Below are positions 16,705-58,471 of a DNA stretch of 63,339 nt, in pieces. The position numbers were made by a program, and so were the translations under genes. The stretch is from Actinomycetota bacterium. GTDB lineage: Bacteria; Actinomycetota; Geothermincolia; Fen-727; Anoxymicrobiaceae. The stretch's first letter is position 1, and the number at the start of each line of letters is the position of its first letter. The stretch is taken from NCBI GenBank assembly GCA_020062425.1, contig JAGUWJ010000010.1, positions 1 through 63,339 of the forward strand. The letters are read 5' to 3'. A model generated the notes under the pieces. That model made no database searches. It was not told the origin of the DNA and was given only the letters and a program-made list of their open reading frames with translations.

Positions 16705-16749
16705 TATGGAGAGGGTGGAACACGAAAACGGGATGCTGGAGGTAGCGGC

Positions 16750-37542: not shown

Positions 37543-39492
37543 ATGAGAGGCAATCATCCCGGGAGGAAAACAGTTGCGAGGACCGTTGTCGGCGTCGTCG
37601 TCGCGTTGTTCTTGACGGTTCTTTTCACGAGCGGGGCTATGGCCGTGACGCCTGTTACGGAGCCGGACCCGCAGTCTATTACCCCGGACCAGGGTGCCAG
37701 GGGCACCACTGTTAACCCCACCATTACCGGAGTCAGCCTGGGCCTAGTGAACAATGTGTACCTGTCCAGGTCCGGCGAGACCGATATCAAAGCCGAGGCG
37801 GGCAGCGTCACCGCTTCCGGTACCCAGGTCTCCTTCACGCTGGAGATACCGGCGGGCGCCGCACTTGGTGACTGGGACGTGGAAGTATGGGAACCCGCGG
37901 CGGGTATTCCTTTCGGGACGAACATCGACGATTACCACGGTATTATCTACGACGGCTTCACCATCACCCAATCCGCTTCGCCCAACGCTCCGGTGATAAC
38001 CTCGATATCGCCTGCAAGAGGCGCGGTGGGGACGGGCGTTCTGATAAGCGGCAAGAACTTCGGGTCATCCCGGGGGAACTCTTACGTGAACTTCGGCTCC
38101 TCCAAAGCTTCGAGCTATGCCTCCTGGAGCAGTTCTCAGATAAGCTGCACGGTACCCGTGCTTGACACCGGGCCTGTCAGCGTGACCGTCACAACGAAGT
38201 ACGGAACCTCGAATTCAAAGACGTTCACGATTACCTTTCCTATCTGGTACCTGGCGGAGGGATCGACCGCCTGGGGATACTCGGCCTACATATCGATCGA
38301 GAATCCCAACGACGAGGCGGTCACCGCCAAGGTTACGTATATGACAGAAAGCGGGCCGGAGGAAAGGCCTGACGTCCAGCTTTCCCCGATGTCTCAGGCG
38401 ACTCTAAACCCCGAATCGGACATCGGACAGAAGAACTTCTCCACGATGGTCGAGTGCCGTGAGGGGAAGACTATTGCGGTTGACCGCACCATGTACTGGA
38501 CCGGCGAGGGTGCCGCGAGCCAGGAAGGGCACTGCTCCGTGGGAGTCCCGGCCCCCGACACGACCTGGTACCTCGCTGAGGGCTCATCCGAGTGGGGATT
38601 CGATTGCTGGCTGCTGATTCAGAACCCTAACGACGAAGAGGCCACGTGCCAGGTGACCTATATGATAGAAGGGTCCGCTCCGGTGACCCTGGAGAAGAAG
38701 GTTCCGGGGAATTCTCGCAAGACCTACAATATGGAGACGGATATCGGCAAGAGGGACGCGTCCATAAAGGTAGAGTCCGACATCCCGGTCATCCCCGAGC
38801 GTGCCATGTACAGGAACAGCCGCAGGGAAGGTCACGACTCCATCGGGACCATTTCGCCAGCGTTGGAGTACTACCTTGCCGAGGGGACTACGGCGTACGG
38901 GTTCACCACCTATATCCTCATACAGAACCCGAACGACAGCGAGACCGAGGTTAACCTGACCTACATGACTACCCAGGGCGAAGTGCAGCACCCTGAAAAC
39001 CCGATACGCATGCCGGCCAACTCGAGGAAAACCGTGAGGGTCAACGATTTCATGCCGGGCAAGGACTTCTCGACAAGGGTAGTCGGCTCGCAGGTTATCA
39101 TCGCCGAGCGCGCGATGTATTGGGACGCCGGACTCGGTGAGGCATGTCACGACTCGATCGGGGTCAGCGAAGGACACAAGACCTTCTATCTGCCCGACGG
39201 GCAGACGTCGGACGGTCGTGAGACCTATACCCTGGTCCAGAACCCCAACGGAGAGGCTGTGACGGTCGAGGTGACTTACCTCACACCGGACGGAACGGCG
39301 AACGTGACTTTCGAGGACACGGTCGCTGCGAACTCGCGTCAGACCTATGTCATGGCGGACAAGATCCTCGACGGCAGGGCTTCGGTGATGGTCACCAGCA
39401 AGACCGCGGGGAAAGACATTATTGTCGAGCGAGCAATGTACTGGAACGCCAGGGGCGCCGGCACAGGTACGCTGGGCGGCTTTGAGGACTGA
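37543..39492 (+). CDS. Secreted protein: signal peptide, two IPT/TIG-like domains, four WY(L/F)AEG-type repeats
   Basis: Repeats start at aa 235, 342, 444 and 548 (WYLAEGSTAWGY, WYLAEGSSEWGF, YYLAEGTTAYGF, FYLPDGQTSDGR). Each ends in (D/E)R(A/T)MYW. Confidence 0.85.
   Translation: MRGNHPGRKTVARTVVGVVVALFLTVLFTSGAMAVTPVTEPDPQSITPDQGARGTTVNPTITGVSLGLVNNVYLSRSGETDIKAEAGSVTASGTQVSFTLEIPAGAALGDWDVEVWEPAAGIPFGTNIDDYHGIIYDGFTITQSASPNAPVITSISPARGAVGTGVLISGKNFGSSRGNSYVNFGSSKASSYASWSSSQISCTVPVLDTGPVSVTVTTKYGTSNSKTFTITFPIWYLAEGSTAWGYSAYISIENPNDEAVTAKVTYMTESGPEERPDVQLSPMSQATLNPESDIGQKNFSTMVECREGKTIAVDRTMYWTGEGAASQEGHCSVGVPAPDTTWYLAEGSSEWGFDCWLLIQNPNDEEATCQVTYMIEGSAPVTLEKKVPGNSRKTYNMETDIGKRDASIKVESDIPVIPERAMYRNSRREGHDSIGTISPALEYYLAEGTTAYGFTTYILIQNPNDSETEVNLTYMTTQGEVQHPENPIRMPANSRKTVRVNDFMPGKDFSTRVVGSQVIIAERAMYWDAGLGEACHDSIGVSEGHKTFYLPDGQTSDGRETYTLVQNPNGEAVTVEVTYLTPDGTANVTFEDTVAANSRQTYVMADKILDGRASVMVTSKTAGKDIIVERAMYWNARGAGTGTLGGFED
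38239..39450 (+). repeat. Array of four ~105 aa protein-coding repeats (FAEG-type module)
   Basis: Periodicity counted by hand on the translation. Confidence 0.8.
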
Positions 39493-39515
39493 TCTTCTGG
39501 CGAGCGGTCAGGTCG

Positions 39516-40592
39516 TCATAAGATCCTGACCGCGCCGGAGAGGTCGTTTCGCTCGGACAGCGACGATATCCTCACTACGTCACCGGAGTGGGGCGCATGT
39601 ATGTACTGACCCTGCCCGATGTAGATGCCGACGTGTCCCCACCCGTGGAAGCCGACGATGTCACCGGGCTTCAGCTCGCCCGGGGTGACCGGGGTGCCGC
39701 ACCTCGCCTGTGCGTAGGAGCTATGCGGGAGCGCTACGCCCGCGGCAGTCCCGTAGCAGTACTGGGTGAGCCCGGAGCAGTCGAAAGAAGATGGGCCGGA
39801 CCCGGCGCTAACGTACGGTTTCCCGAGCTGCATGTGCGCTAACGCTACGACCTTCTCTTTCGAGTCCTTCGGGCCGGGCTTCCCGTAGGCGGCGGCCGCG
39901 GCGATGGGCCTGTCGGATTCTACCGTGGTGTTGATATCGAATCCGGTGATGTACGCGCCCGCGTTCACCGAGAGCCTGCTCTGTCCCTTGATCTCGAGGG
40001 CTGTTCCGGCGGGGGCGCCGAGGTCCGAGCTGAAAGCTACGTTTACCCGCGCGGGTCTCTTGCTGGGATTGTGGAGAAGGACCCACGTCTCGCACCCTTC
40101 TCCTGCTGTAGAGCCACCGGTGAAGCGCCAGCTCGAGCCTGTCCGGGCGGTGCCGGGCGAGGCCCGGTCCAGGCCGCGGGCCGGGTTCTTCACCCTGGTC
40201 CAGGCGTATACAGCCTGGTCGGACTTGAGGGCAACCGCGACGTCGAAGCTCTCGACCTGTCCTCCCACGTTCACGCAGGCCATGCTGGAGGCTTGGACTT
40301 GCGCGCTGAGGGCTCCGGCCTCGCCTCCGCTGGTGTGGAAGGCCAGAGAGACGGTTGCTTCTTCCGAGCCGGGGTTCTCGAGCATTACCCAGGTCTCGAA
40401 CCCTCCGGCGGTGGCGCTGTCCGGCAGGTACCAGGTCTTCCTAGGGCTTCCCGAACTCGAATCCAGCCCCGATACGTCAGCCGATGCGCGAGCGACCGGA
40501 ACTGCGGCCATCAGTATCGAGAAGAGCGCTAGAACAGCAGGGATTATCACCATACGTTTTAGCTTCACTTTTCTGGGCGTCTTCGTTTTCAT
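39516..40592 (-). CDS. Secreted NlpC/P60 (C40) peptidase with two degenerate FAEG-type repeats
   Basis: Signal peptide; WYLPDSATAGGFETWVMLENPG and WRFTGGSTAGEGCETWVLLHNPS repeat heads; catalytic FDCSGLTQY and GHVGIYIG blocks. ATG 40592 follows AAGGAGA. Confidence 0.85.
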   Translation of the reverse strand: MKTKTPRKVKLKRMVIIPAVLALFSILMAAVPVARASADVSGLDSSSGSPRKTWYLPDSATAGGFETWVMLENPGSEEATVSLAFHTSGGEAGALSAQVQASSMACVNVGGQVESFDVAVALKSDQAVYAWTRVKNPARGLDRASPGTARTGSSWRFTGGSTAGEGCETWVLLHNPSKRPARVNVAFSSDLGAPAGTALEIKGQSRLSVNAGAYITGFDINTTVESDRPIAAAAAYGKPGPKDSKEKVVALAHMQLGKPYVSAGSGPSSFDCSGLTQYCYGTAAGVALPHSSYAQARCGTPVTPGELKPGDIVGFHGWGHVGIYIGQGQYIHAPHSGDVVRISSLSERNDLSGAVRIL

Positions 40593-41031
40593 TACACATC
40601 TCCTTAATGCATGAAGCCGTCCGCGCGGGCGCAGGCCGGCAACATCGCGCTCGGTTGAATGCCCCCGACTCGCCCGGAAACCGGGACAGGGCATGGTGAA
40701 AACAGGAAGAAATCACTGGAAAAATCGATGGGATTCTCCTTGAAGGGTTAAGAGACTAGAGTGTGCTGGACTTCGGTGGCGTTGGCTTGTGGATGCTCAA
40801 CACAAAGACCCGCACCGGTTCCGTTTTGCTCGACATATGCGCAAACGCTCTATTCATAATGTGCACTCTTCAGGGAGCAGGGCGTCTCGCTCGCGGCGCT
40901 CCAGCACTCCCGCCAGACCCTTTCCGTCGTGGCGAACCATTGACAACGACATAAAGATTCGCCCGTTTCGGGGTAAATACCTTCCCAAAGGTCGAGGAGT
41001 ATACAGCAGTTCGGCCGCGCGCGCAAACGAA

Positions 41032-41913
41032 TCACTCTAATGGGTTACCGTGCTGTATGAACTCGAGCATCTCGTTGACAGCCTCCGGAGAGGAAGCCCA
41101 GGGCGTTGGCTCGGTGGGGAACCAGTCGCGTTTCCTGAACTCCTCTTCTGGCCAGGGGAACGGCAGTTCGATTACCGTCCCGGGAGTATCGATGGTCTCC
41201 AGCGCATCCAGCATGCTCCGGAGTATCTCCAGGTGGGTGTCACCGTCTCCGGGGCGGCCCCAGATCATCCCGAAGGGGAACTCTATGGCGGCGGCGCGTG
41301 GCACTCCTATCTTCTCCGTCACGAAAGGCATGTTGGTGAGCGAGATGGTCACTAGGCCGCTCTTCTCGAGGACCCGCTGTACCAGCCCCACGGACTGGTT
41401 GCACAAGGGTCACCCGGACGAGAGGAGCACCACGTCCACGTCCATCTCGCGCAGACGGTCGGCCATGAGCGGCGCGGTCTCCCTGAGGAGGGTGCCGACC
41501 TTCGGCTGATAACCCATTATGGTCAGGTGTTTCTCCGATATCGCACCTATCCTGCCTTCGGCGAGTACCTGCTCAAGCGCGGCGAGCGGCATCATGCATC
41601 CGACGTCGTCCAGGACGTGATCGTTGCGGTAGTGAAGGTGCGCGGCGCGCAAGTCACCCTGTGAGATGTCACGAGGTATCTCGCGGAACGAGGGGTCGCC
41701 CCATAGGGGCTCCCGCCGCTCCCGGTCAAGGTCGAACGGTCGGTCACACTCCTGGTAGAGCCCTCCCGATGAGACCAACGCGACAGTGCACTCCTGGAGA
41801 GGTCTGCCGAGCGGAGTCCAGGGGATCTCCTCAGCGCTCATGTCGGTGTACGGCCAGACCTTGAGCGATTCCGCGAGTGTCCTTGGCATGAACTTGAAGC
41901 TGTCTACCGTCAT
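41032..41913 (-). CDS. GrdB-family (selenoprotein B-like) protein with an in-frame TGA, putative selenocysteine
   Basis: ORFs 41410-41973 and 41032-41406 are in the same frame, separated only by TGA (41410-41412). The joined sequence reads ...VVLLSSG-U-PLC-NQSVG..., a UxxC motif. ATG 41913 follows AGGAGG. Confidence 0.6.
41375..41403 (-). other. Candidate bacterial SECIS hairpin
   Basis: mRNA ACCAGUC-CGUGG-GGCUGGU (7 bp including one G:U pair, 5 nt loop containing GU) starts 11 nt after the UGA; 3 further base pairs lie below an internal loop. Confidence 0.4.
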
Positions 41914-42003
41914 CTGGTGACCTCCTTTGGCGGGACGACGACATTTTATCATCTGCTCGAACCCGTGTATCAACTTTCGTTCTCAACCCGTTTCACAAGC
42001 GGA

Positions 42004-43146: not shown

Positions 43147-43224
43147 TGCAAAACGGGATCAAACCACTAGTATTCTAGATTGCAGCGATAGTTAGTCTGA
43201 TTCGTTTTCCGTATGGAGTGAAAT

Positions 43225-44448: not shown

Positions 44449-44463
44449 ACCGCCTCGGGCGGC

Positions 44464-44916
44464 TCATTTCTTCTTCGCGGCGTACCAGTGGCGGGGCCCT
44501 TCATCCGCCCATTCGACCACGCCGACCTTCTTTATCTTGCGCAGGTTCTTCAGGTGGGCGTCGCCGTGGACGTGCTCCAGAAACTCAAGCTTCCTGCACT
44601 CAGGGAAATCGGCACATTCCCAGCAGCCCTCGAGCTCTTTCTTCAGTGCGCACTGCGCCACCTCGCAGAAGCGGGACCGCGAGCCGCCGCGGCAGCCCTT
44701 ACAACGGAGCTTTACCATGGCACCGAGGACCGCGTAACACTGAGGGTACTCCTGGAACTCCTTGAAAGGGATTATCTCGGCCACCTTATCGAACCGGGCG
44801 TCCCGGAGTTCCTTGCGCAGGTCGCGGGCGAGGTCCGGGATGGTGCCCTTTCCGAAAGAGCAGTCGCCGCAGTAGAGGCCGCAATAAGACGTCTTTCGGA
44901 GATGCTGGTCGCTCAA
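44464..44916 (-). CDS. Cys-rich DUF3795-like protein
   Basis: YCGLYCGDC...CKGCRGG...C..C...CWEC pattern. Confidence 0.65.
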   Translation of the reverse strand: MSDQHLRKTSYCGLYCGDCSFGKGTIPDLARDLRKELRDARFDKVAEIIPFKEFQEYPQCYAVLGAMVKLRCKGCRGGSRSRFCEVAQCALKKELEGCWECADFPECRKLEFLEHVHGDAHLKNLRKIKKVGVVEWADEGPRHWYAAKKK

Positions 44917-45072: not shown

Positions 45073-46938
45073 CTATGGGGTAGCGTTGGCTTTCACGAAA
45101 TCGATAAGCGGCCTTATCACCTCGTTGGGCCGGCGCGTCGATGTGTTAGCGGACGCCATCAGCACATCGAGGTGGTTGTACCCCTTTATGAATTCGAAGG
45201 TCCCCGGCACCAGCACTCCCATGATGGTGTCTTTCAGAACCCCCTGCTCCGCTACGAACTCGATCTGCGGCATAGCCGCCACCTTGTCCGCGTGCATCAC
45301 GTTGAGCCCGTACTCAGGCCCGAACGGCATCGAGCCGCCGATGAGGTCGATTATGAGCCTCATCGAGAAGTACCACTCGGTCAGGTTGAGCGGCCCCTTG
45401 TGCAGGGCACGGGCAACGTCCTTGATGTCACTGACCTCGTTGGTGGTCGTAGTATACGTGGTTGCCTGCTTCGTGTCCTTGAAGTAGGGATCAACGGCGG
45501 TCCCGACCTCGTCGAAGTCCACCCAGGAGTAGAGCGGGCCGGTCCCCAGCTTGGTGACCGGGCCGGCGTCGTTTGCGATGAAGTACGGGGGTTTGCCCAG
45601 TATGTTCGCGACGATCTGCGAGAGGCCTGGTACGGCATAGAGCAGGTCATTGGCGGGGAAGCTCTTCTTTACCACGGAGCCTCCCTGGAGGAACCCCATG
45701 CTGGTCTGGATCATGGATAGCGGCGTGAAGCTGTCGTCGAAGACCACGCCCAGGACCGCCTCGTTGGTGTACTTGAAATCCCGTATCTCGGGTCTGCCCG
45801 CGGAGAAAGTCTCCAGATCGACCGAGTGCAGGAACTTGAGCAGCGTCTTCAAGTTGTACGAGTAAGGGATCTCTTTGATGAGGTAGCATTCGTCGTCGGG
45901 GTAATAGTAGGCGGCGATGCTGAGCGCCTCCAGCAGGCCCATTGCTTCCGCGGTGAGCATAGGGATAGGCAGTATGACCGGGTTCACCCCTTTTCTCATA
46001 CCCGCCACCAGGCCCGAGTAGACAAAGTCCGTCATATTGGAGGCCTGGTCCCAGATGAACTTCGGGAGGAAACCGGCGTAGAGGTCCACAATCTCAGGGA
46101 TGGCCTTGACCGTGGTGTCCAGTCCGAAGAGCCCCGCGCAGTTGTTGTAGCCCGCGTCGTCGAGGGTCGCCGGGTCTCCGTCCTTGTCCCAGGCGGCGAA
46201 CATTGAGGTCATGATGCCGCCCAGCGAATGTCCTCCGACGAAAACCTTCTTCTTCCTGGTCTCCCGGTCGGGCACCATTGTCTCCATCACCGTGAAGACG
46301 TCCTCGGTGTCGAGCTCGAGGCCGAACTCGGAGAGGTAGGGTACCTGCTTGTCGGTGAGGAAGCCGTCGAACGTTCCCCCTCCGGGAGTGATCTCCTTTC
46401 CCAGGTAGTAGTAATCCACCGCAGCTTGAGCCGCCTCGTCCAGGGGCATGCCTGCCGCGACCTTGTCCTCGAGGTAGTTCGCTGCGGAGAGATCCTCGAT
46501 GCGGTTGTTCCGGCGCTCCACCGCCCAGCACTCGATGTTCTTGTTGTCTTTGACTTTTGCCTGGTAGACGAGGTTGCGCGCGATGTACTCGAAGCCGTTC
46601 GCGCCCTCGAGTATGCCGGGGAGCATGACCAGCATCGCGTCCGCCGCGTCGCTGTTCACACCTCCGTCATCCGCCAGCGTGCTGTTGTCCGCCGGCCGGA
46701 AGCGGAGGAAATGTATCTTGTCGCATTCAGCCGGGGCGCCCCATTCTGGAGGCAGGGGTGAGTCGATTATCTCTTCCTCCATGACCACGGCGGCATCGAC
46801 CTCCGCCTGGGAGTAGTCGCGTACGGCGCCGGTCGGCTGTCTAGCTTCCGGGACCGGCCCCCCCTGCTGGTAACACCCGGCGAGGACTACCAGCAGGATC
46901 AGGATCACAAGGGTCGCGATGATCTGTTTCTTTCCCAT
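45073..46938 (-). CDS. Secreted alpha/beta-hydrolase lipoprotein (lipase/esterase-like)
   Basis: Lipobox VLAGC; nucleophile elbow GGHSLGG. ATG 46938 follows GGGGGA. Confidence 0.75.
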   Translation of the reverse strand: MGKKQIIATLVILILLVVLAGCYQQGGPVPEARQPTGAVRDYSQAEVDAAVVMEEEIIDSPLPPEWGAPAECDKIHFLRFRPADNSTLADDGGVNSDAADAMLVMLPGILEGANGFEYIARNLVYQAKVKDNKNIECWAVERRNNRIEDLSAANYLEDKVAAGMPLDEAAQAAVDYYYLGKEITPGGGTFDGFLTDKQVPYLSEFGLELDTEDVFTVMETMVPDRETRKKKVFVGGHSLGGIMTSMFAAWDKDGDPATLDDAGYNNCAGLFGLDTTVKAIPEIVDLYAGFLPKFIWDQASNMTDFVYSGLVAGMRKGVNPVILPIPMLTAEAMGLLEALSIAAYYYPDDECYLIKEIPYSYNLKTLLKFLHSVDLETFSAGRPEIRDFKYTNEAVLGVVFDDSFTPLSMIQTSMGFLQGGSVVKKSFPANDLLYAVPGLSQIVANILGKPPYFIANDAGPVTKLGTGPLYSWVDFDEVGTAVDPYFKDTKQATTYTTTTNEVSDIKDVARALHKGPLNLTEWYFSMRLIIDLIGGSMPFGPEYGLNVMHADKVAAMPQIEFVAEQGVLKDTIMGVLVPGTFEFIKGYNHLDVLMASANTSTRRPNEVIRPLIDFVKANATP

Positions 46939-47197
46939 GGACGATTCCCCCAATCAATCGTTCCTCGGCACCTGCATCTGTAATGGACACGGCAAAGAGA
47001 TCATATCGTGTGATATTGCTGGCTGCCGATTCCCCCGGAGACACCCCCTTTGCCGTAGCAGCAAGCCGGCCGGCCCCGCTCGACGTCACTGCCGCACAAC
47101 AAGATAAGGTACGTGAAGCGGGTGCTTACCGTGAACATTATTGGCATAGATGTCATATGTCAATACTGCGAAATGGGGATTTTTCAGTCCAAGCCGC

Positions 47198-49611: not shown

Positions 49612-52600
49612 ATGAGCTCACTAGAGAAGCGGCGCTCGAGCCGAAGACGAAAGACCGCCTCGAGAGCGCTTGCCGCGCTTTCCGCCCTGGGACTCGCCCT
49701 CCTCGTCGTCGCCCCGGGGGTCTGTACCCGGTCGGGCGGTGGACTGTCGGTGACGCTCGAAGTGAGAGAGAGGGCGGGGGTGACGCGCCGAGCCGAGCCG
49801 GTGACGTCCGGTGTGCCCGTTGCGAAGTCCCTTGACCTTCGGACCGCTGACGGCTTGAGGCTGCTCGATTCCAGCGGGCGTGAGGTCCCGGCTCAGTTCG
49901 CTGTAACATCGAGGTGGGGGGGCTCTCCGAGCGACGCTTCCCGGCCCATACGCTGGCTGCTCATCGATTTCCAGGCGGATGTCGGTGCGGGCGGCACGGC
50001 TGCCTACCGGCTCGAGGGCGGCGGCGATGGCAGCGTGCGCGGCACTACCTTGAGAGTGACCAGGAGCGACGCGCAAGTCCTGGAGATATCGACCGGCCCG
50101 GCCCACTTCGCCTTTGGAAAGCGCGCTTTCCGGCTCTTCGATTCGGTGCATGTCGGGGGACAGCGGCTGCTGAGTGCGGCGAGCTCGTCCGGCATCATCG
50201 CGACAGACACCTCCGGCAGAGTCTACAGTTCCGCCGTCTCGGCGCCGAGCGAGGTGGCGCTCGAGGTGAACGGTCCCCTGCGCAAGACCGTTCGGGTGAA
50301 AGGGGCCCTTGCGGGTCCCGGCGGGAAGCTGCTCCATTACACAGCCAGGATATCGCTCTTCGCCGGGCACACCCGGGCGAGGGTAGCGCTGTCGGTGATC
50401 AACAAGCGTGACCCCGTGGAGGAGGGGGGCCAGCCCCAGGTCTGGCACATCGGCTCCCCCCGGAGCGCTTCTTTCCGCGATCTCTCTCTGAGGTTGGAGT
50501 GCAACGGGATAACCGGTGCCCGGTTCGTCCTGGGCGGCGTGGCGGGCGGCTCGCACGGCCCCGCCGGCTCCGCGAAGGTCTACCAGGACTCGAGCGGCAC
50601 CGCACACTGGGACCGCCACCGCGGCAACCATCCCCGTCCGCAGAGCTACGTATCGTTCCGCGGATACAAGGTCTACCGCGACGGCTCCCAGGTGGCGTCG
50701 GGTACGCAGGCGAGCCCCTGGCTCGACCTCTCAGGCGCGCAGGGAGGCGTCGAGGTGGCCGCCCGGGACTTCTGGCAGAACTTCCCCAAGGCGCTGCGCG
50801 GCTCCGGCGGGGCCGTAGAGGCCGGGCTTTTTCCCACCGAGTACGCGGGCAACTATTCGTTCAGGCCGCAGGAACAGAAGACCCATGAGCTGCTCTTCAA
50901 CTTCCACGGGGGTTCTCCCGCGATGGAGGAGCTGTCGGGCCTTGCGGCCTCCCTCCAGGAGCCGCTCTTCGCGCAGGCGACCCCAACCTACTACCTCTCT
51001 TCGGGAGCGTTAGGGCGGGTCACCGGGCTTACGGGGGACCCGGAGTTCGACGCGTACGAGCGGCTGAACACCAGCACCCTGGGCGGGGGCGAGACGGACC
51101 TGTACAAGGTCAGGGACGAGGCGGACTTCTACGGCTGGCAGGACTACGGCGACGTCCCCATCGACTACGAGGACGGCGGCACAGGAACGTTCAACCAGAA
51201 GTATAACTTCGACTACGGGATGATGCTCCAGTTCATGAGGACGGGTGATTTCAGGTGGTTCACGCTGGCCGACTCCGGGGGCAGGCACGTCGCGGACCTG
51301 GACGTCCTCCACTTCCAGGGGGAGCCTGACGTGTGGTGGGAGGGGGGGTTCTTCGGTCATTCCTATCACGACGAGGACAGCAACTCCAACCCCAACCGGA
51401 ACGAAGGGGCGCCGCACCCCGACCTGGTCTTCGGGGCGCCCGGCCTCTTTCTCCTGCACTACATGACCGGCAACAGGGTCGCTTACGACACCGCCATGGA
51501 GATAAGCAAGAACATCCGATACCGCTTCGACAACTCCTTCGGGCGGGGGAACGACCAGGGTTACGCCAACGCTTACGATTACGACAACGAGTGCGAGAGC
51601 CCCAGGCCGTTCGCTCACGGGCTGATGGTGCTCGTCGAGGCGTTCCGGGCCACGGGTGACGAGAGTTACCTCGCCACGTCCGGGTGGCTCATCAGGAACG
51701 CACACTCCGCCACCGACATGTTCATCACCGACCCCGTCCCGGGGGACAGGCGCTACACCAAGATCTTCACCTGGGACCTGCTGGAGCTGTCTCTGGGCAG
51801 GTACCTGGACCTCTGCGCTGAGTCCGACAGGCGCGACCCCGCGGGCGCGCGGGAACTCCTTCTCTCCTTGGCGCGGCAGGAGGCGGAGGTGATGTGGCGC
51901 ACTGACGAGCGCGGCAACAAGGGAGTGCCTTACGCCTGGATGCGGGACGGCACGCCCTGGGGCTGGGAGGACTACGAGGTGGCGGTCAATGTATGCAACT
52001 GGCACCTGCTGACCGCCGACGCACTTGCCTACGCATACGCCTACGGCGGGGGAGCGGGGCTCATGGACAGGGCCCGGGAGGCGTTCAAGACGGGCTCCGA
52101 CCCCGTCCTGGAGTACTATGAACCCACTTATACCGCGACGAAGGAGGCCACCAACAGCGCCAACTTCGGCCTGGTCTACATGCACCAGCGCCACCCTCCG
52201 GGCGACGCGCCCAGCGCAAGCGAGCAGTTCCAGGAGTGGCTTTGCCTGGAGAACCCCGGCGCGGCGGCGGCGAGCGTCACTATCGAGTACTTCATGGACG
52301 GCGGAGCAGGTCGCTCCCAGGTCGTGGAGGTGCCCGCCAGGAGCCGGAGGACCGTGAGCGTAAACGAGGCCGTCGGCGGCGGCAGGGACGTTTCGGCGAG
52401 GGTCACCGGGAGCGCGCCGGTGGTGGTGGAGAGACCGATGTACTTCAACTACCACGGCGCGTGGCAGGGTGGGCACTGCACCCCCGGCGCGCTCGAACCC
52501 GCGCGGAAGTGGTACTTCGCGGAAGGCTGCACCAGACCGGGGTTCGAGGAGTGGCTCACGGTCCAGAACCCCGGAGGATCGGATGCCCACCTGACCCTCA

Positions 52601-53499
52601 CTTACATGCTCGAGGGTGAGGGTACGAGCCGGCAGGAAGTTACCGCGCCGGCCGCCAGCCGCACCACGATAAGCGTGAACGGCTTTCTCGGGGTCGGGCA
52701 CAACGTCTCAACCCTGGTGGTGAGCGACCAGCCGGTGGTGGTGGAGCGGCCCATGTACTTCCTCTACCGGGACAAGTGGTCGGGAGGCCATACGGTCGTG
52801 GGCGCGCGTGAGCCGTCGCGAGAGTGGCACTTCGCAGAGGGAACGACTCGGTCGAACCCGTTCGACGGTTCGTACGAGGAGTGGATCTGCCTGCAGAACC
52901 CGAACGACAGGCCAGCCACGGCGCACGTCACATACCTGCTGGACTCGGGCGCGGAGGTGCCGCGGGATTACAGGGTGGAGGCGTCGAGCAGGCTGACCGT
53001 GGACGTGAACATGGCGGTGGGGCCCGACCGCGACGTGAGCGCGAAGATAGACTCTGACCTCCCCCTGGTGGCGGAGCGGCCGCTCTACTTCAACTACAGG
53101 AACTCACTCGACGGCGGGCACGCGGTGGTGGGGTCCGCGGGCGCCGGCACCCGCTGGCATTTCGCCGAGGGTTGCACCAGGGACGGTTTCCAGACCTGGC
53201 TCTGCGTTTCGAACCCCCAGGCTGAGAGCGTCGAGGCCACGGTGGATTACTACCTGGCCAGCGGTCGCACGGCGGCGCGAAGGGTGGTCCTGCCTCCCCG
53301 CAGCCGCACCACCATCGACGTGAACCGGGACGTCGGGCCGATGGAGGACGTCAGCATGCACCTGGTGAGCGACGCGCCTGTAATGGTGGAGCGACCCGTC
53401 TACTTCAATTACGGCCCGGGCTGGGCGGGAGGGGACGTCGCAGCGGGCTCAGCCAGGCCTGAGGAGACCTGGTATTTCGCGGAGGGATGCACCCGCTAG
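49612..53499 (+). CDS. Very large secreted protein: ~860 aa uncharacterised N-terminal region plus four FAEG-type repeats and a truncated fifth
   Basis: ATG 49612 follows AAGGGGG; signal-anchor LAALSALGLALLVVAPG. Repeat heads FQEWLCLENPG, WYFAEGCTRPGFEEW, WHFAEGTTRS...YEEW, WHFAEGCTRDGFQTW. The protein ends ...WYFAEGCTR-TAG. Confidence 0.85.
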   Translation: MSSLEKRRSSRRRKTASRALAALSALGLALLVVAPGVCTRSGGGLSVTLEVRERAGVTRRAEPVTSGVPVAKSLDLRTADGLRLLDSSGREVPAQFAVTSRWGGSPSDASRPIRWLLIDFQADVGAGGTAAYRLEGGGDGSVRGTTLRVTRSDAQVLEISTGPAHFAFGKRAFRLFDSVHVGGQRLLSAASSSGIIATDTSGRVYSSAVSAPSEVALEVNGPLRKTVRVKGALAGPGGKLLHYTARISLFAGHTRARVALSVINKRDPVEEGGQPQVWHIGSPRSASFRDLSLRLECNGITGARFVLGGVAGGSHGPAGSAKVYQDSSGTAHWDRHRGNHPRPQSYVSFRGYKVYRDGSQVASGTQASPWLDLSGAQGGVEVAARDFWQNFPKALRGSGGAVEAGLFPTEYAGNYSFRPQEQKTHELLFNFHGGSPAMEELSGLAASLQEPLFAQATPTYYLSSGALGRVTGLTGDPEFDAYERLNTSTLGGGETDLYKVRDEADFYGWQDYGDVPIDYEDGGTGTFNQKYNFDYGMMLQFMRTGDFRWFTLADSGGRHVADLDVLHFQGEPDVWWEGGFFGHSYHDEDSNSNPNRNEGAPHPDLVFGAPGLFLLHYMTGNRVAYDTAMEISKNIRYRFDNSFGRGNDQGYANAYDYDNECESPRPFAHGLMVLVEAFRATGDESYLATSGWLIRNAHSATDMFITDPVPGDRRYTKIFTWDLLELSLGRYLDLCAESDRRDPAGARELLLSLARQEAEVMWRTDERGNKGVPYAWMRDGTPWGWEDYEVAVNVCNWHLLTADALAYAYAYGGGAGLMDRAREAFKTGSDPVLEYYEPTYTATKEATNSANFGLVYMHQRHPPGDAPSASEQFQEWLCLENPGAAAASVTIEYFMDGGAGRSQVVEVPARSRRTVSVNEAVGGGRDVSARVTGSAPVVVERPMYFNYHGAWQGGHCTPGALEPARKWYFAEGCTRPGFEEWLTVQNPGGSDAHLTLTYMLEGEGTSRQEVTAPAASRTTISVNGFLGVGHNVSTLVVSDQPVVVERPMYFLYRDKWSGGHTVVGAREPSREWHFAEGTTRSNPFDGSYEEWICLQNPNDRPATAHVTYLLDSGAEVPRDYRVEASSRLTVDVNMAVGPDRDVSAKIDSDLPLVAERPLYFNYRNSLDGGHAVVGSAGAGTRWHFAEGCTRDGFQTWLCVSNPQAESVEATVDYYLASGRTAARRVVLPPRSRTTIDVNRDVGPMEDVSMHLVSDAPVMVERPVYFNYGPGWAGGDVAAGSARPEETWYFAEGCTR
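52222..53496 (+). repeat. FAEG-type repeat array, ending inside a repeat head
   Basis: Read from the translation. Confidence 0.75.
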
Positions 53500-53579
53500 G
53501 GCTTCCCGCTCTCCCGTGCCCGGGAGTGCTTCTCCGTCCCAACGTGGATTTCGCCAGGTACTGGCAGGATCTACGGTAA

Positions 53580-53604
53580 GGTGCCTGACACCAACGGAAG
53601 TTTT
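53580..53604 (+). repeat. Copy a of the GGTGCCTGACACCAACGGAA repeat
   Basis: ggtgcctgacaccaacggaagtttt. Its 20-mer is identical to 56073-56092, and its 22-mer is identical to the reverse complement of 55998-56019. Confidence 0.85.
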
Positions 53605-53875
53605 ACGCGGCTTCGGGGTAATGGCGCCGGAAAGCGCGCTTGGTCGGCTTCCTGAACAGAGCCCTGAGGGAGCACCACCGGAGGAAGCCCACCGTAAGCA
53701 GGTACACTCCGGGGAGCACGAGGAGGGCGGCCTTCTGGCTGTCCTTCATCTGCGACCCGGCGAAGATAAGAGCCGCTCCGGTACCCATCCTGTTTATTCT
53801 TCCAAGCCCGTCTACGTTCTTCCAGAAGAACTTCCACTCGGGCTTCTCCAGGCCGGCTTCCTTCTTCTTGCTCAT
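53603..53875 (-). CDS. DUF2892-like small membrane protein
   Basis: 90 aa; the NVDGLGRINRMGTGAALIFAG pattern resembles the DUF2892/YgaP C-terminal motif; two hydrophobic helices. Confidence 0.5.
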   Translation of the reverse strand: MSKKKEAGLEKPEWKFFWKNVDGLGRINRMGTGAALIFAGSQMKDSQKAALLVLPGVYLLTVGFLRWCSLRALFRKPTKRAFRRHYPEAA

Positions 53876-54224
53876 CTGCCGTTCCCTCCTTCAGATATCC
53901 AAGCCAGTGTCACGCGACTGCCCCAGACTACACCCTGAGCCCATTGATATCCACCTCCCGGTGCGTCAATGAAAAAGACGCGCTGTTCAGGGGTGCTGCG
54001 GTCGCGCGTCTTCAGAGAGCTCAAGGTCTGAGCCCCACCAGTGCATCCCCGCGGTGAAATTCCAGAGCTGTACGAGGCTCCCCTCACCACTTCTCATGGT
54101 TTTCCGCGCCTCAAGGGTGATCACTGCGCGCCACCGAATAGAATAGTTGAGGCTCACGAGTTCAGGCGGACCGAAATGCCCGTGCCGGGTGCTGGTGGCG
54201 CCTCCGGGACTGGAGATCGGATAG

Positions 54225-55181
54225 ATGGCAGTGGCGGTGATCAAGACCGAGGCGCTGACCAAGCACTACGGCAAGGTGGTGGGCGTCGAGGACCTCTATC
54301 TCGAGGTGAACGAAGGGGAGGTCTTCGGCTTCCTCGGTCCCAATGGAGCCGGTAAGACCACCACCATACGCTGCCTGATGGGACTGCTGAAACCCACCTC
54401 CGGGCGCGGCGAAGTGCTGGGCCTGGACACGTGGAAGCAGAGCGTGTCGGTCAGGGAGAAAGTGGGCTACCTCGCCGGAGAGAGCGCCCTCTACGACAGG
54501 CTCACCGGGGAAGCCCTCATCCGCTTCATATCACGGTTCGACAACCACTCCGAGAGCCACGGGCTCGAACTCGCCGAAAGGCTTAACCTCACACTCGACC
54601 GCAAGGTGAGCGGCTACTCGCGGGGCATGAAACAGAAATTGGCGGTGGTGCTCGCCCTCATGAAGAAGCCGCCTCTGCTCATGATGGACGAGCCGACGAA
54701 CGCGCTCGACCCGCTTACCCAGCACATGCTCTACGAGATATTGAACGAGTACCGCGAGAGCGGCACCACCATAATGTTCTCCTCGCACAACCTTCCCGAG
54801 GTCGAGCGGATATGCGACCGGGTGGGAATAATCCGGGACGGCAACCTGGTAGCGACCGAGAGGATGCAGGACCTGAGGAACATGCGCCTGCGAAACGTCG
54901 AGATAACGTTCGCGCGCGAGGTCCCGGGAGAGCTCGGTTCCATTCCCGGGGTGTCAGACCTGGAGGAGCAGGCGGGTAACCGGGTACAGCTCAAGCTGAA
55001 GGGTGAGATAGACCCACTGGTGAAGATGATAGCCTCGTATGATGTTGCGGACCTGTCAGCGAAGCACGCGAGTCTCGAGGACGTCTTCTTCGAGTTCTAC
55101 GGCCTGGAGAAGGCGTCAGGGGACAGTGCGGTCGACGGGGAGGCTCCGGCGGACGGCGACCGGGAGGAGGGCTCCCGGTGA
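54225..55181 (+). CDS. ABC transporter ATP-binding protein (ABC-2 type)
   Basis: Walker A GPNGAGKTT, signature YSRGMKQKL, Walker B LLMMDEP. Confidence 0.9.
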   Translation: MAVAVIKTEALTKHYGKVVGVEDLYLEVNEGEVFGFLGPNGAGKTTTIRCLMGLLKPTSGRGEVLGLDTWKQSVSVREKVGYLAGESALYDRLTGEALIRFISRFDNHSESHGLELAERLNLTLDRKVSGYSRGMKQKLAVVLALMKKPPLLMMDEPTNALDPLTQHMLYEILNEYRESGTTIMFSSHNLPEVERICDRVGIIRDGNLVATERMQDLRNMRLRNVEITFAREVPGELGSIPGVSDLEEQAGNRVQLKLKGEIDPLVKMIASYDVADLSAKHASLEDVFFEFYGLEKASGDSAVDGEAPADGDREEGSR

Positions 55182-55984
55182 ACTGGAACCTGGTGCGTAA
55201 GACCGTTACCGACCGCTGGAAGTTCATCGCCGCGTACGCGGGCGCGATGTCGGCGTGGGTACTGATGCTTGCCGCCATCTTCCCCAGCTTCCAGAACATC
55301 AAAGGCATACAGGATGTCTTCGAGAGCTACCCGGAGAGCTTCACGCGCTTCTTCGGCATAGACAAGATAGACATATCTTCGTTCGACAACCTCATGGGCA
55401 TCGAGCTGTACGGGCTCATGATAGTGATCATTATCGGCTCGTTCATAATAGCGTTCGCCCGAAGTATGGTGGCGGGTGAGATACAGGACGGGACCATTGA
55501 CCTCCTGCTGGCCCAGCCGATACAGAGGTGGAAGGTTCTTACCAGCGAAGGCGCCGTGCTGCTGGGTGGGATAGTGTCGATAACGGCAGCAACGGTACTC
55601 TCTGTGTACGCGTTCGGGGCCGCGTTCGGTATAGAGGGTATATCCTACCGCGGGCACGCTGCTTTTATGCTGCTCGCGGTAGCTCTCTTCGCGGCTATCG
55701 CCGGGTACTCGATACTGCTTTCCGCGGTGATGCGCGAGCCGAGGAGGGTGGCCATGGCGGCAGCGGGCCTGACGCTCGTCTTCTACCTGGTGCACTTCGC
55801 CGCCGGTTACAACAGCGTGATGGAGAAGATCGACTGGTTCAGCATCTTCCGCTACTACGACCCCATGAAGGCGGTGCGGAGCGGCTCGGTTCCGGTAGGG
55901 GACATCCTCTTCCTGCTCGCCTTCGCGGCGGTATTCTTCTCAGCCGCGCTGGTGGTGTTCCAGCGCAGGGACATAGCTGTCTGA
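55178..55984 (+). CDS. ABC-2 family transporter permease
   Basis: 4-nt overlap with the ATPase gene; six hydrophobic segments. Confidence 0.8.
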   Translation: MNWNLVRKTVTDRWKFIAAYAGAMSAWVLMLAAIFPSFQNIKGIQDVFESYPESFTRFFGIDKIDISSFDNLMGIELYGLMIVIIIGSFIIAFARSMVAGEIQDGTIDLLLAQPIQRWKVLTSEGAVLLGGIVSITAATVLSVYAFGAAFGIEGISYRGHAAFMLLAVALFAAIAGYSILLSAVMREPRRVAMAAAGLTLVFYLVHFAAGYNSVMEKIDWFSIFRYYDPMKAVRSGSVPVGDILFLLAFAAVFFSAALVVFQRRDIAV

Positions 55985-55997
55985 ATTTCCCATTGGT

Positions 55998-56031
55998 ACT
56001 TCCGTTGGTGTCAGGCACCAACGGTAGTTTT
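55998..56031 (+). terminator. Copy b: hairpin CCGTTGGTG-TCAGG-CACCAACGG plus T-tract (terminator-like or palindromic operator)
   Basis: 9-bp perfect stem followed by tagtttt, 14 nt after the permease stop. Confidence 0.55.
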
Positions 56032-56065
56032 CAGTTGAGGGTCCGTCCACGATTTCGTTAGTGCC

Positions 56066-56099
56066 TTCCGTTGGTGCCTGACACCAACGGAAATTTTCG
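56066..56099 (+). terminator. Copy c: hairpin TTCCGTTGGTG-CCTGA-CACCAACGGAA plus ATTTT
   Basis: 11-bp perfect stem and T-tract, 36 nt upstream of ATG 56135. GTTGAGG (56034-56040) can pair with CCTCAAC (56101-56107) around it. Confidence 0.55.
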
Positions 56100-56134
56100 T
56101 CCTCAACAAAAATTTCCAAGGTACAATAACCTTC

Positions 56135-58471
56135 ATGAAGCGAATCACCACAGCAACCGTCATGGCATTACTGGTCATCCTGGCTCTCCCGGTCGCGGCG
56201 TTCCCGGCATGGAACGGTGGGCACATTGTCGCCGGCTGTCCGTCGGCGGCCAGGACATGGTACTTCGCGGAGGGCACAACCCGCAGCGGCTTCAACGAGT
56301 GGGTCTGCCTGCTCAACCCGAACGAGGCAGCGACCACCGCCGACTTGAAGTACATGCTGGCGGACGGCCAGACCATCGATAAGTCTTACTCTCTTCAGGG
56401 GAACAGCCGGACGACGGTGGACGTGAACTCAGACGTCGGCGCCGGAAAAGACGTATCCATCAAGATCGACGCCGCAGCTCCCGTAGTGGCCGAGCGCCCG
56501 ATCTACTTCCGTTACAACGGCACGCTCACGGGCGGCCACACGGTTCTCGGGGCCTCTGCTCCGCGCACGGAGTGGTACTTCGCTGAAGGGTCGTGCCGTC
56601 CCGGGTTCGACACCTACGTCTGCATTCAGAACCCCTCAGTATCGGACGCGCGCGTGAAGGTGACTTACATGCTCGGGTCCGGCGGTGTCGAAACTAAGGA
56701 GCTCGAAGTGGGGAAGCGGTCGAGGTCCACCGTTGTATCAAAGGAACAGCTGGGCGAAGGAGACGATCCCGCCCACGACTTCTCGATCAAGGTCGAATCA
56801 CTGGACGGATCCCCCGTGGTTGCCGAGCGCCCCATGTACTTCGCCTACAAGGGTGCTTGGACCGGCGGCCACGACGTGATGGGCGCGGCGGCTCCCGCCA
56901 GGACCTTCTACTTCGCAGAAGGTTCGTGCCGCCCCGGCTTCGATCCGTACATCTGCATCCAGAACCCGGGGGCCGCACTTGCACGTGTCAAGGTAACGTA
57001 CATGCTCGGGACCGGCGAGACGCGCACCCAGTCGCTCACCGTGGGAAAGAGGTCGCGCGCTACGGTCGTTGTGAAACAGCTTCTCGGGGAGTACGACGAC
57101 CAGGCCCATGACTTCTCCGCGCGCGTCGAGACCACAAACGGCACTACGATTATCGCCGAACGCCCCATGTACTTCGCCTACAAGGGTGCCTGGACCGGCG
57201 GCCACGACGTTGTTGGCGCACCTGCCCCCGCCAGGACCTTCTACTTTGCGGAAGGGACGTGCCGCCCCGGCTTTGATCCGTACATCTGCATCCAGAACCC
57301 TGGGGCCTCGCCCGCGGAGGTCAACATCACCTACCTGCTGGGAGACGGGGGTAGCACCACCCGGTCGCTCGCCATCGCGGCCGCCTCCCGGCAGACCGTA
57401 GAGGTGAAGCAGGTGCTGGGCGAGGCCAACGACGACTCCCACGATTTCTCATTGAGGGTCGAAGCCCTGGAGGGCGGGAAGATAGTCGTAGAGCGGCCCA
57501 TGTACTTCGACTACTACAGCACCGCGCGCTGGAGCCTCACCGCCGTGGGTGACGTGAACCTCGGTGGAGACGTATCCCCCACGCTGGCGGCTCGAGGATG
57601 GGCCTGGCCCTGGTCGACCGTGGGCGACCTGCTGCGCTCCACGACACTCACCTTCGCGAACCTGGAGTGCACCATGTCTTACACGGGGTCTCCAGTCCCC
57701 GGCAAGACGTTCACCTTCCGGGGGGACCCCGCGGCGCTCGCGGCCATGAGGGATGATGGAGGTGTGGACGTGGTGTCGCAAGCGAACAACCACGCCCGCG
57801 ACTACGGTGCACAGTCACTGCTGGACAGCCTTTCCTACCTCGACGCGGCCGGGATAAAGCACTGTGGTGCGGGGGCGGACTACGCCTCGGCGTACAGGCC
57901 GGCGTATCTCGACGCCAACGGGCTCCGCGTCGCCTTCCTCGCCTACGACGAGATCGGTTACTCGAGCTGGTACGCGGACACCGGCTTCCCCGGCGTGTGT
58001 GACGCCACCAACACCGGCCAGCTGGCTCAGGACGTGCGAGCGGCGAGGGAGGCTGCGGACATGGTCGTGGTCTCGTTCCACTGGGGCACCGAGCGCAAGA
58101 CCACGCCCGACCCCATACAGACGTCGCTCGCCCGCCTCGCCATCGACAACGGGGCCGACCTGGTGCTGGGTCACCACCCGCACGTGGCGCAGGGTTTCGA
58201 GTTCTATAACGGCAAGCTCATCGCCAACTCGTTGGGGAACTTCGTGTTCAACCCCGGCAGCGAACAGGGACGCTATACCATCCTGACGAGGTTCGACATG
58301 GACTCGCGGGGATTCGTCGGCGCCTCCGTCCGCCCGGTCTATATCAGCAACTGTAGACCCCAGCTCATGGGGGGCGCGGAAGGGGACGCCTGGATATCGC
58401 AGGTGGCTGCGCTCACCAGGGCGCTGGGCATCGGCGCCCGGGTCGAGGACGGGGTCATGTACTTCCCCTGA
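56135..58471 (+). CDS. Secreted protein: four FAEG-type repeats fused to a CapA/PgsA-like metallophosphatase-fold domain
   Basis: Signal peptide; repeat heads WYFAEGTTRSGFNEW, WYFAEGSCRPGFDTY, FYFAEGSCRPGFDPY, FYFAEGTCRPGFDPY. C-terminal FANLEC...NNHARDYG...GHHPHV blocks are typical of CapA. Confidence 0.85.
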   Translation: MKRITTATVMALLVILALPVAAFPAWNGGHIVAGCPSAARTWYFAEGTTRSGFNEWVCLLNPNEAATTADLKYMLADGQTIDKSYSLQGNSRTTVDVNSDVGAGKDVSIKIDAAAPVVAERPIYFRYNGTLTGGHTVLGASAPRTEWYFAEGSCRPGFDTYVCIQNPSVSDARVKVTYMLGSGGVETKELEVGKRSRSTVVSKEQLGEGDDPAHDFSIKVESLDGSPVVAERPMYFAYKGAWTGGHDVMGAAAPARTFYFAEGSCRPGFDPYICIQNPGAALARVKVTYMLGTGETRTQSLTVGKRSRATVVVKQLLGEYDDQAHDFSARVETTNGTTIIAERPMYFAYKGAWTGGHDVVGAPAPARTFYFAEGTCRPGFDPYICIQNPGASPAEVNITYLLGDGGSTTRSLAIAAASRQTVEVKQVLGEANDDSHDFSLRVEALEGGKIVVERPMYFDYYSTARWSLTAVGDVNLGGDVSPTLAARGWAWPWSTVGDLLRSTTLTFANLECTMSYTGSPVPGKTFTFRGDPAALAAMRDDGGVDVVSQANNHARDYGAQSLLDSLSYLDAAGIKHCGAGADYASAYRPAYLDANGLRVAFLAYDEIGYSSWYADTGFPGVCDATNTGQLAQDVRAAREAADMVVVSFHWGTERKTTPDPIQTSLARLAIDNGADLVLGHHPHVAQGFEFYNGKLIANSLGNFVFNPGSEQGRYTILTRFDMDSRGFVGASVRPVYISNCRPQLMGGAEGDAWISQVAALTRALGIGARVEDGVMYFP
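56255..57518 (+). repeat. FAEG-type repeat array; units 2-4 are very similar at the nucleotide level
   Basis: Long near-identical stretches, for example 56823-56970 versus 57160-57305. Confidence 0.8.

Follow-up and report, generated by a model that had tools for sequence, protein, structure and literature searches.

Tetrads of ASRAH-superfamily units on secreted proteins of an uncultured actinobacterium: strand registers, partner domains and a proposed role in wall anchoring

Repeat proteins of the window

The window analyzed here, the whole 63,339-nucleotide (nt) stretch at positions 1 to 63,339 of contig JAGUWJ010000010.1 (assembly GCA_020062425.1, an Actinomycetota bacterium of the Geothermincolia), encodes four proteins, A to D, that share a repeated unit marked by the motifs W-Y-F-A-E-G, Q-N-P and E-R-P-M-Y-F. 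All four open reading frames (ORFs), as described in an initial annotation made from the sequence alone, were present in the ORF listing, and motif counts gave four units in A, two degenerate units in B and four units each in C and D, 14 in all. When a hidden Markov model (HMM) of these units was used to search the whole window in six-frame translation, it returned the same 14 units (77-127 bits) and otherwise only a nine-residue stub at the end of protein C. This HMM is self-trained; the independent check was the Pfam family DUF5719 (PF18986), whose gathering cut-off of 26.2 bits was exceeded by all four proteins (66.7 bits for A, 29.5 for B, 44.9 for C and 62.3 for D). The repeat, which had been left without a named family, is assigned to DUF5719 and to the ASRAH/ASRT superfamily, published in 2009, and its period of 102-111 residues is shorter than the 105-125 residues proposed. 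The elements of the four genes are listed below; a tetrad is an array of four units and a dyad an array of two.

37543-39492, plus strand: protein A, 649 residues; signal peptide, Ig-like region, one Pfam TIG domain and C-terminal ASRAH tetrad
37990-38232, plus strand: TIG domain of protein A (residues 150-230), above the Pfam threshold
38242-39468, plus strand: tetrad of protein A, HMM scores 95-118 bits
38242-38541, 38560-38841, 38866-39159 and 39178-39468, plus strand: units of protein A
39516-40592, minus strand: protein B, 358 residues from the Met at 40592 (alternative ORF start 40694)
39549-39824, minus strand: NlpC/P60 domain of protein B (NLPC_P60, 82 bits)
39885-40439, minus strand: dyad of protein B, units 40170-40439 and 39885-40133
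49612-53499, plus strand: protein C, 1295 residues from the Met at 49612 (alternative ORF start 49561)
50065-50415, plus strand: PcRGLX-like beta-sandwich of protein C, 45 bits, above threshold
50980-51315, plus strand: weak, sub-threshold alpha/alpha-toroid match of protein C
52213-53439, plus strand: tetrad of protein C, units 52213-52482, 52504-52800, 52819-53130 and 53152-53439
53470-53496, plus strand: post-array strand 1 of protein C, WYFAEGCTR, with the stop codon at 53497-53499
56135-58471, plus strand: protein D, 778 residues; signal peptide, pre-array strand 8, ASRAH tetrad and PGA_cap domain
56213-56236, plus strand: pre-array, strand-8-like NGGHIVAG of protein D, which fits the inter-unit linker motif W-T-G-G-H-D-V-x-G
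56252-57526, plus strand: tetrad of protein D, HMM scores 106-127 bits
56252-56545, 56570-56881, 56900-57214 and 57233-57526, plus strand: units of protein D
57536-58252, plus strand: PGA_cap (CapA-like) domain of protein D, 235 bits

Most of the domain architecture in the initial annotation was borne out. Protein A, in which the repeat motif starts at residues 235, 342, about 446 and 548, has no catalytic domain by Pfam, as annotated, and of its two proposed IPT/TIG domains the one at residues 150-230 was recovered, while the first Ig-like region (residues 36-148) is not a TIG domain by Pfam. Its tetrad is of a kind that we refer to as A-type, marked by ERAMYW and by strand 8 in the variant form GAGTGTLGG. 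Protein B consists of a signal peptide, the degenerate dyad and an NlpC/P60 peptidase domain, in the order described, and the ERPMYF motif is lost from both of its units. In protein C a signal peptide and a later Cys are followed by the PcRGLX-like beta-sandwich, the weak alpha/alpha-toroid and a permuted tetrad; four copies do follow a region of about 860 residues, but in view of the PcRGLX-like and sub-threshold toroid matches that region is not wholly unknown. The N-terminal 863 residues matched no PDB sequence, and the Pfam matches weakly suggest a PcRGLX-like protein (a polysaccharide-lyase-type beta-sandwich plus alpha/alpha toroid). The four copies placed before a CapA-like domain in protein D were recovered together with that domain, and CapA-type orthologs of D occur among its relatives.

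An N-terminal hydrophobic, signal-like segment was found by a heuristic in all four proteins, in line with their annotation as signal-peptide proteins, and a Cys follows this segment only in D (VAGC) and C (PGVC). No Pfam match to SLH, LysM, CWB2, SH3b or PG_binding was found on the four proteins at E <= 0.1, WxLIP_PGBD gave a sub-threshold match only (13.9 against 27.3 bits), and no LPXTG motif was present at the four C-termini.

N21 and P22 in the QNP motif and S51, the S-R-x-T serine, do not vary across the 14 units, and [RTEK]-W/F-Y-F-A-E-G is present in all but the permuted unit C1 (13 of 14). A single strand-2 Cys (W-[VIL]-C-[ILV]-Q-N-P) occurs in half of the units (C1, C3, C4 and D1-D4) and in the consensus of the relatives, and another is present in the A-E-G-S-C loop of units D2-D4. 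Secreted proteins seldom have a conserved free Cys, although one would be plausible in an anaerobe.

Fold, tetrad organization and strand registers

By fold the unit belongs to the ASRAH superfamily: it is a beta-sandwich of eight strands, has ASRT and TM1070 as its solved relatives and is entered in Pfam as DUF5719. When an AlphaFold model of one unit (predicted local distance difference test, pLDDT, 84; predicted template-modeling score, pTM, 0.75) was used in a Foldseek search, the top 19 matches were all ASRT or TM1070 (query-normalized TM score, TMq, 0.61-0.76; 20-26% identity), and the next neighbors were carbohydrate-binding modules (CBMs) at a TM score of about 0.44. A unit taken from the four-unit array model described below matched TM1070 with a target-normalized score (TMt) of 0.79 and a root-mean-square deviation of 1.8 A. 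The profile of the 14 units, searched against 177,635 PDB sequences, placed 1NC7 (TM1070, Thermotoga; E = 0.002) and 2II7 (ASRT, Anabaena; E = 0.003) at the top, in alignments that cover the domain, beginning at the strand-1 Trp, crossing the Asn turn and reaching the last strands; by sequence this relationship is borderline, but the fold backs it. The two superfamily hallmarks, a strand-1 Trp after a polar residue and a near-invariant Asn that ends strand 2 without gaps (PMC2739507), are both present, the Trp aligned to W7 and the Asn to N32 of TM1070. In addition, PF07100 (ASRT) is among the precomputed Pfam matches of about half of the relatives; on the window proteins it scored 24.8 bits, in a single unit, just short of the cut-off of 25. 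NCBI already lists relatives as 'DUF5719 family protein'.

The ASRAH superfamily was defined by de Souza, Iyer and Aravind in 2009 with three families: solo intracellular ASRT-like proteins, secreted Chloroflexi tetrads 'always fused to an amidase', and an actinomycete lipoprotein dyad encoded beside WhiB and a glycosyltransferase (PMC2739507). Secreted ASRAH domains were found to occur as dyads or tetrads, and peptidoglycan or sugar binding was predicted for the secreted tetrads (PMC2739507). The domain itself and its predicted sugar-binding role are thus already on record, and a literature search for DUF5719, PF18986 and extracellular ASRAH proteins found no paper beyond that of 2009. The annotated repeat, then, matches a catalogued family, but one whose role is itself only predicted.

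The window tetrads belong to the extracellular branch of the superfamily. With ASRT and TM1070 (PF07100; PDB 2II7-2IIA and 1NC7) they share the eight-stranded beta-sandwich (TM 0.61-0.79), the strand-1 Trp, the invariant Asn at the turn between strands 2 and 3, four domains per particle and, in half of the window units, a Cys matching Cys29 of TM1070, one of its two ligand-contacting residues. ASRT and TM1070, however, are intracellular single-domain proteins that form non-covalent homotetramers, whereas the window arrays are four fused, diverged units in secreted proteins of several domains; the SHEshChhN signature is lost here along with the His-bearing segment (LVSHES in TM1070), which has no counterpart. 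Given the PF07100 score of 24.8 against 25 bits, the missing signature and the signal peptides, the window proteins fall outside the ASRT family proper. The second family (Roseiflexus, Chloroflexus and Herpetosiphon) is likewise secreted, has four tandem units and is predicted to bind peptidoglycan elements, and Amidase_3 fusions occur among the relatives of the window tetrads too. Amidase_3 is nevertheless found on none of the four window proteins and on seven of their best 120 relatives, the window cassette is joined to dozens of families, and the hosts are Actinomycetota (Geothermincolia) rather than Chloroflexi; this separation is made on the published description of that family. Archetypal DUF5719 proteins (PF18986, the third family) agree with the window proteins in Pfam match, phylum, extracytoplasmic location and predicted polysaccharide binding, but the archetype has two units flanked by family-specific extensions at the N- and C-termini, carries a lipobox Cys and lies in a conserved neighborhood of WhiB, glycosyltransferase and inactive zincin genes. 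A, C and D instead have four units, the dyad of B is joined to NlpC/P60, and the neighboring genes scanned (kinase, beta-oxidation, CoA-ligase, ABC-transporter and carbon monoxide dehydrogenase genes) included neither WhiB nor a glycosyltransferase. The window proteins are hence DUF5719 by Pfam and ASRAH by fold, hallmarks and profile, yet fail the defining features of all three described families, and we class them as a tetrad cassette that fuses promiscuously, can be circularly permuted and has expanded in Geothermincolia-type Actinomycetota.

The working and mobile entity is the tetrad and not, as the initial annotation had it, the single unit; this is reported here as new. Related loci were collected by scanning one genome per species with the single-unit pattern [WF][YH]FAEG[TSC][TC]R, a search seeded with seven C- and D-type units, so that the phyletic picture is biased to that subtype. 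Four units were present in 56 of the 72 complete ORFs in these loci, with two units in seven, three in five, and eight and six in one each; the five three-unit ORFs probably reflect one missed unit. Similarly, 240 of the 269 fetched relatives with units carried four and nine carried eight. Relatives with a double tetrad or six units are found at L051:2677-8733 (plus strand) and L033:3229-8505 (plus strand) and in the proteins P0121-P0128. An AlphaFold model of the four protein D units, built on a 100-sequence alignment, had a mean pLDDT of 97.3 and a pTM of 0.94, so that the array is modeled as a single rigid body and not as beads on a string. Each unit of this model has eight strands, of which strand 1 is W-Y-F-A, strand 2 ends at Q-N-P, strand 7 is E-R-P-M-Y-F and strand 8 is the apparent linker G-G-H-D-V-x-G. 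A structure search with the array model found no solved single chain with a matching four-unit arrangement. Within close relatives, 166 of 236 best hits between units fell on the diagonal, that is, between units at the same position, and this position-specific orthology fades below 55% identity. These alignments suggest that the tetrad moves as a cassette, a claim that we limit to within subtypes.

The assignment of strands to units accounts for the stub in protein C. We classified 290 non-identical four- or eight-unit arrays, scoring strand 1 as lacking when the HMM match of unit 1 did not begin before model position 9. All 12 arrays that lacked strand 1 of unit 1 had a W[YH]FAEG strand behind the array, against none of the other 278 (Fisher p = 1.7e-21); a few of these 12 arrays are closely related to each other. 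Protein C is in this class: its first unit has no WYFAEG and begins '...PPGDAPSASEQFQEWLCLENP', at HMM position 9, after a Pro-rich linker, and its fourth unit is followed by WYFAEGCTR and a TAG stop codon. The ortholog P0172, 64% identical to protein C over its full length, has the same ending (W-H-F-A-E-G-C-T-R and stop), and several relatives end with W-Y-F-A-E-G-Y-T-G-x and a stop after unit 4. Partners in this class include FG-GAP/VCBS propellers, PcRGLX-like domains and Amidase_3. The 14 full copies of the initial annotation stand, and its truncated additional copy is replaced by a conserved circular permutation, likewise reported here as new, in which the displaced first strand is predicted from these patterns to complete unit 1. 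Truncation, a pseudogene and a sequencing or assembly error were each considered for the stub and ruled out by P0172 and by four other partner contexts with the stop at the same position.

A mirror-image permutation affects strand 8 in N-terminal tetrads that precede a catalytic domain (CapA-like, deacetylase or amidase). Such tetrads have W-[NT]-G-G-H-D-V-x-G directly after the signal peptide, and their last unit stops after E-R-P-M-Y-F. Both features were present in 32 arrays and neither in 171, with 2 and 28 apparent exceptions (p = 1.9e-20) that are mostly motif-matching misses. Protein D is of this kind, with NGGHIVAGC before unit 1 and a unit 4 that ends after ERPMYF without the GGH strand 8. 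The strand count is thus always four strands 1 plus four strands 8, in three registers, a rule reported here as new; wherever the true boundaries lie, an orphan strand at one end of the array and a gap at the other must be present in two or more of the three registers. Such exact bookkeeping implies that the ends meet in a closed, Velcro-like ring. From the bookkeeping in about 290 arrays and the pTM of 0.94, we infer that the four units most likely form a closed pseudo-tetramer that mimics the ASRT/TM1070 homotetramer. A structural analogy is the Velcro closure of beta-propellers, in which, too, tandem repeats form a ring and the opposite chain end lends the strand that the terminal repeat lacks, in a register permuted among members. 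The units here are beta-sandwiches, however, and not four-stranded blades, and closure is deduced from sequence statistics.

Distribution, partner domains and proposed function

Relatives of these arrays are numerous. The 14-unit profile, searched against 1.84 billion cluster representatives (50% identity), matched 8401 at E <= 1e-3 and 3437 at E <= 1e-30, and a search with the protein D tetrad gave 1659 proteins at E <= 1e-5 among 8000 candidates scored, in which the named relatives are from Candidatus Geothermincolia, Candidatus Anoxymicrobiaceae or 'Actinomycetota' metagenome-assembled genomes (MAGs). The scan of one genome per species found at least 588 matching stretches, 573 of which encode a relative. 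The 78 loci retained came from 29 assemblies, all of them Actinomycetota or without a phylum label; where a lower rank is given, it is mostly Geothermincolia (Solincola, Anoxymicrobiaceae), with a few labels of Acidimicrobiales or Actinomycetes. Up to seven loci per assembly were found even among the best 80, and in the 63 kb of the window the four tetrad or dyad genes are dispersed among metabolic and regulatory genes and do not form one operon.

The relatives are predicted to be predominantly exported, a signal-like N-terminus being found by the heuristic in 177 of 224 Met-starting relatives (79%), so that homologs do not look mainly cytoplasmic. Their partner domains are diverse. Among the best 120 relatives we found Polysacc_deac_1 (16), TIG (12), Amidase_3 (7), YkuD (5), SpoIID (5) and PGA_cap (4), as well as M23, S8 subtilase, GH114, VCBS/FG-GAP and multicopper oxidase (Cu-oxidase) domains. 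The 81 non-array segments of the loci matched 45 Pfam families, including PGA_cap, TIG, FG-GAP, Metallophos/5'-nucleotidase, Cu-oxidase, GH116, malectin, Vgb_lyase propellers and beta-helix. For example, position-matched A-type tetrads are 60-72% identical across TIG-only, Metallophos plus TIG, DUF11, Vgb_lyase propeller and DUF5122 propeller proteins. We report as new that the tetrad cassette is carried by dozens of unrelated secreted domains in Geothermincolia MAGs. Together with the confident models (pLDDT 84 for the unit and 97 for the array), which indicate an autonomous fold, these partners uphold the proposal of a non-catalytic module shuffled onto unrelated extracytoplasmic proteins, which thus survives two of the refutations named in the initial annotation, a missing autonomous fold and mainly cytoplasmic homologs.

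Taking the domain architectures together with the 2009 prediction, we consider that the tetrad is probably a multivalent, non-covalent anchor that binds secreted proteins to cell-wall glycan. The largest coherent group of partners consists of enzymes that remodel the cell's own peptidoglycan, and no other known anchor is present on the four window proteins; both observations point to the wall. After Sec export, the array would close into a ring with up to four equivalent clefts, which would bind a repeating envelope glycan (the peptidoglycan backbone or a secondary wall polymer) non-covalently and multivalently. Where the array is N-terminal to a catalytic domain, the N-terminus would supply strand 8 of the last unit, and in the other class, represented by the stub of protein C, the C-terminus would supply strand 1 of the first. 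Binding would hold the fused domain at the cell surface, functionally like SLH or CWB2 triplets. The cargo would comprise wall hydrolases and remodeling enzymes (NlpC/P60, amidase, deacetylase, YkuD and SpoIID) and CapA-like proteins, and also lyases, oxidases, proteases, phosphoesterases, propellers and TIG-only structural proteins.

The comparison with established wall-binding repeats may be drawn as a functional analogy only. Like SLH, CWB2, LysM, SH3b and choline-binding repeats, the tetrad appears as a non-catalytic repeat set of fixed copy number at either terminus of unrelated exoproteins, wall hydrolases above all. SLH and CWB2 domains are built from three motifs that form a compact pseudo-trimer; the tetrad, too, would be a single pseudo-symmetric body. 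It is unrelated to these modules in fold and sequence, and its arrangement is four-fold rather than three-fold. Membership of the SLH, LysM or CWB2 families is ruled out by the lack of any Pfam match at E <= 0.1.

Several points weigh against an anchoring ring. The searched literature shows no binding, localization or structural experiment on extracellular ASRAH/DUF5719 proteins, and the ring geometry, the docking of the strands and the clefts are inferred. Proteins with more units score higher, which accounts for part of the excess of tetrads in the protein lists, although the loci set, seeded by a single-unit pattern, is still dominated by tetrads (56 of 72). Counts of distribution are per locus or per protein list and are not a per-genome census that includes other types of anchor. 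The proposed ligand residues of solo ASRT proteins are only partly kept, the His lying in a six-residue segment that is absent here and the Cys being present in 7 of 14 units. Finally, some partners are carbohydrate-active (PcRGLX-like, GH116, GH114 and malectin), so that targeting to a substrate is possible for a subset of the proteins.

That last point bears on an alternative in which the tetrad is a classical CBM that directs an enzyme to a soluble or insoluble polysaccharide substrate, for example plant or microbial glycans of the environment, and not to the producer's own wall. The next-best structural neighbors of the unit are indeed CBM22 and Ruminococcus CBMs (TM about 0.44), the partners active on glycans include the PcRGLX-like domain of protein C and GH116, malectin, a GtaA hairpin and GH114 in relatives, and a general case for sugar binding was made in 2009 (PMC2739507). 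The similarity to CBMs is weak, however, and the same tetrad subtype is carried by a multicopper oxidase, a subtilase, a metallophosphoesterase/5'-nucleotidase, Vgb-lyase-like propellers, CapA-like proteins and TIG-only proteins. Since many partners have no carbohydrate substrate, and since the largest coherent group (deacetylase, Amidase_3, YkuD, SpoIID, M23 and NlpC/P60) acts on the cell's own peptidoglycan, we regard plain substrate targeting as unlikely. We give slightly less credit to a protein-protein module, by which rings would self-associate or, like cohesin and dockerin, dock on a scaffold or S-layer-like protein, with TIG-plus-tetrad proteins forming a lattice. Solo ASRT and TM1070 are obligate homotetramers and ASRT is reported to bind a protein partner (PMC2739507); protein A and 12 of the best 120 relatives carry only TIG/Ig-like domains and the tetrad, the array is modeled as a rigid body (pTM 0.94), and eight-unit double tetrads exist. 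Yet no candidate receptor or scaffold gene was identified, an intramolecular tetrad already fills the tetramer interfaces, and the strong association with peptidoglycan enzymes suits a wall ligand better; the conserved polar residues (E7, R53, E81-R82, Y85 and H96-D97) fit glycan clefts or, equally, salt bridges between units.

Homology to ASRT and TM1070, which are predicted metabolite sensors (PMC2739507), together with the alignment of the ligand-contacting Cys of TM1070 to a Cys in 7 of 14 units and in the relatives' consensus, would also accommodate a sensor in which the tetrad binds a free sugar or metabolite and controls the fused enzyme allosterically. Its extracellular location, its presence in enzyme-free proteins such as A, and its attachment to more than 40 unrelated folds, at either terminus and through variable Pro-rich linkers, are poorly compatible with specific allostery and make such a sensor very improbable. 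The abrupt TAG after WYFAEGCTR is the sole hint that the array might be a chance or low-complexity repeat or an annotation artefact, with the stub of protein C as an assembly truncation; the Pfam scores in four proteins, the 8401 cluster representatives, the confident AlphaFold models and the conservation of the stub refute this, and we give it practically no credence.

Two genes of the window bear on how widely the proposed wall anchor might be used. At 31901-33898 (plus strand) lies a gene for a secreted fervidolysin-like subtilase with a prodomain, a Peptidase_S8 domain and a TIG domain but no ASRAH unit, its C-terminal 133 residues matching nothing; not every exoprotein of this genome therefore uses a tetrad. 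A 626-residue protein encoded at 45073-46953 (minus strand) has a lipobox-like LAGC after its signal segment and a faint alpha/beta-hydrolase match, and lipoprotein anchoring seems to coexist with the tetrad system. A broader proposal is that rings of ASRT-like tetrads, with four clefts for a wall glycopolymer, might be a lineage-wide surface-display system of Candidatus Geothermincolia and neighboring uncultured Actinomycetota, a fourth major Gram-positive anchor beside SLH, CWB2 and LysM/SH3b, in which the permuted registers evolved to take cargo at either end. We put this forward tentatively, as a proposal somewhat more apt to fail than to hold; if it is true, the ring would be the first experimentally tractable handle on the ligand of the ASRT superfamily.

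The wall-anchor reading supplies a working functional hypothesis for a large orphan family, many of whose 8401 representatives are annotated only as 'hypothetical' or 'DUF5719'. If true, it would show how an uncultured, anaerobic actinobacterial class displays its exoenzymes, its own wall-remodeling enzymes included. The strand-count rule makes these beta-sandwich repeats a clean case in which ring closure through circular permutation can be tested. In addition, the secreted tetrads represent a single-chain and easily expressed form of the ASRT tetramer, whose ligand bears on the role of ASRT itself.

Other genes of the window

No tRNA genes or Rfam matches were found in the 63,339-base window. 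About 200 bp upstream of protein A, 35824-37335 (plus strand) encodes a 503-residue polytopic membrane protein with a weak match (28.4 bits) to the Sulfatase/alkaline-phosphatase superfamily; from this match, its product could be an LtaS-type envelope-polymer transferase. The stretch of about 700 bp that follows protein C (53516-54220) shows no similarity to the repeat in any of its frames; beyond the TAG, the protein C frame continues as GF... before the resemblance ends. A small hydrophobic ORF lies there on the minus strand at about 53640-53880. The segments 59069-60976 (minus strand) and 15031-18780 (plus strand) contain a carbon monoxide dehydrogenase/prismane-family gene, a sigma-54 gene and a gene for a sigma-54 activator, and the carbon monoxide dehydrogenase gene is consistent with an anaerobe. 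Finally, two same-frame ORFs at 41032-41973 (minus strand) are parted only by an in-frame TGA at 41410-41412 (...VVLLSSG-TGA-PLCNQSVG...), and the upstream part matches Pfam GRDB (glycine/sarcosine/betaine reductase B). The pair appears to be one selenoprotein gene, with U-x-x-C as its motif, that ORF calling has divided.

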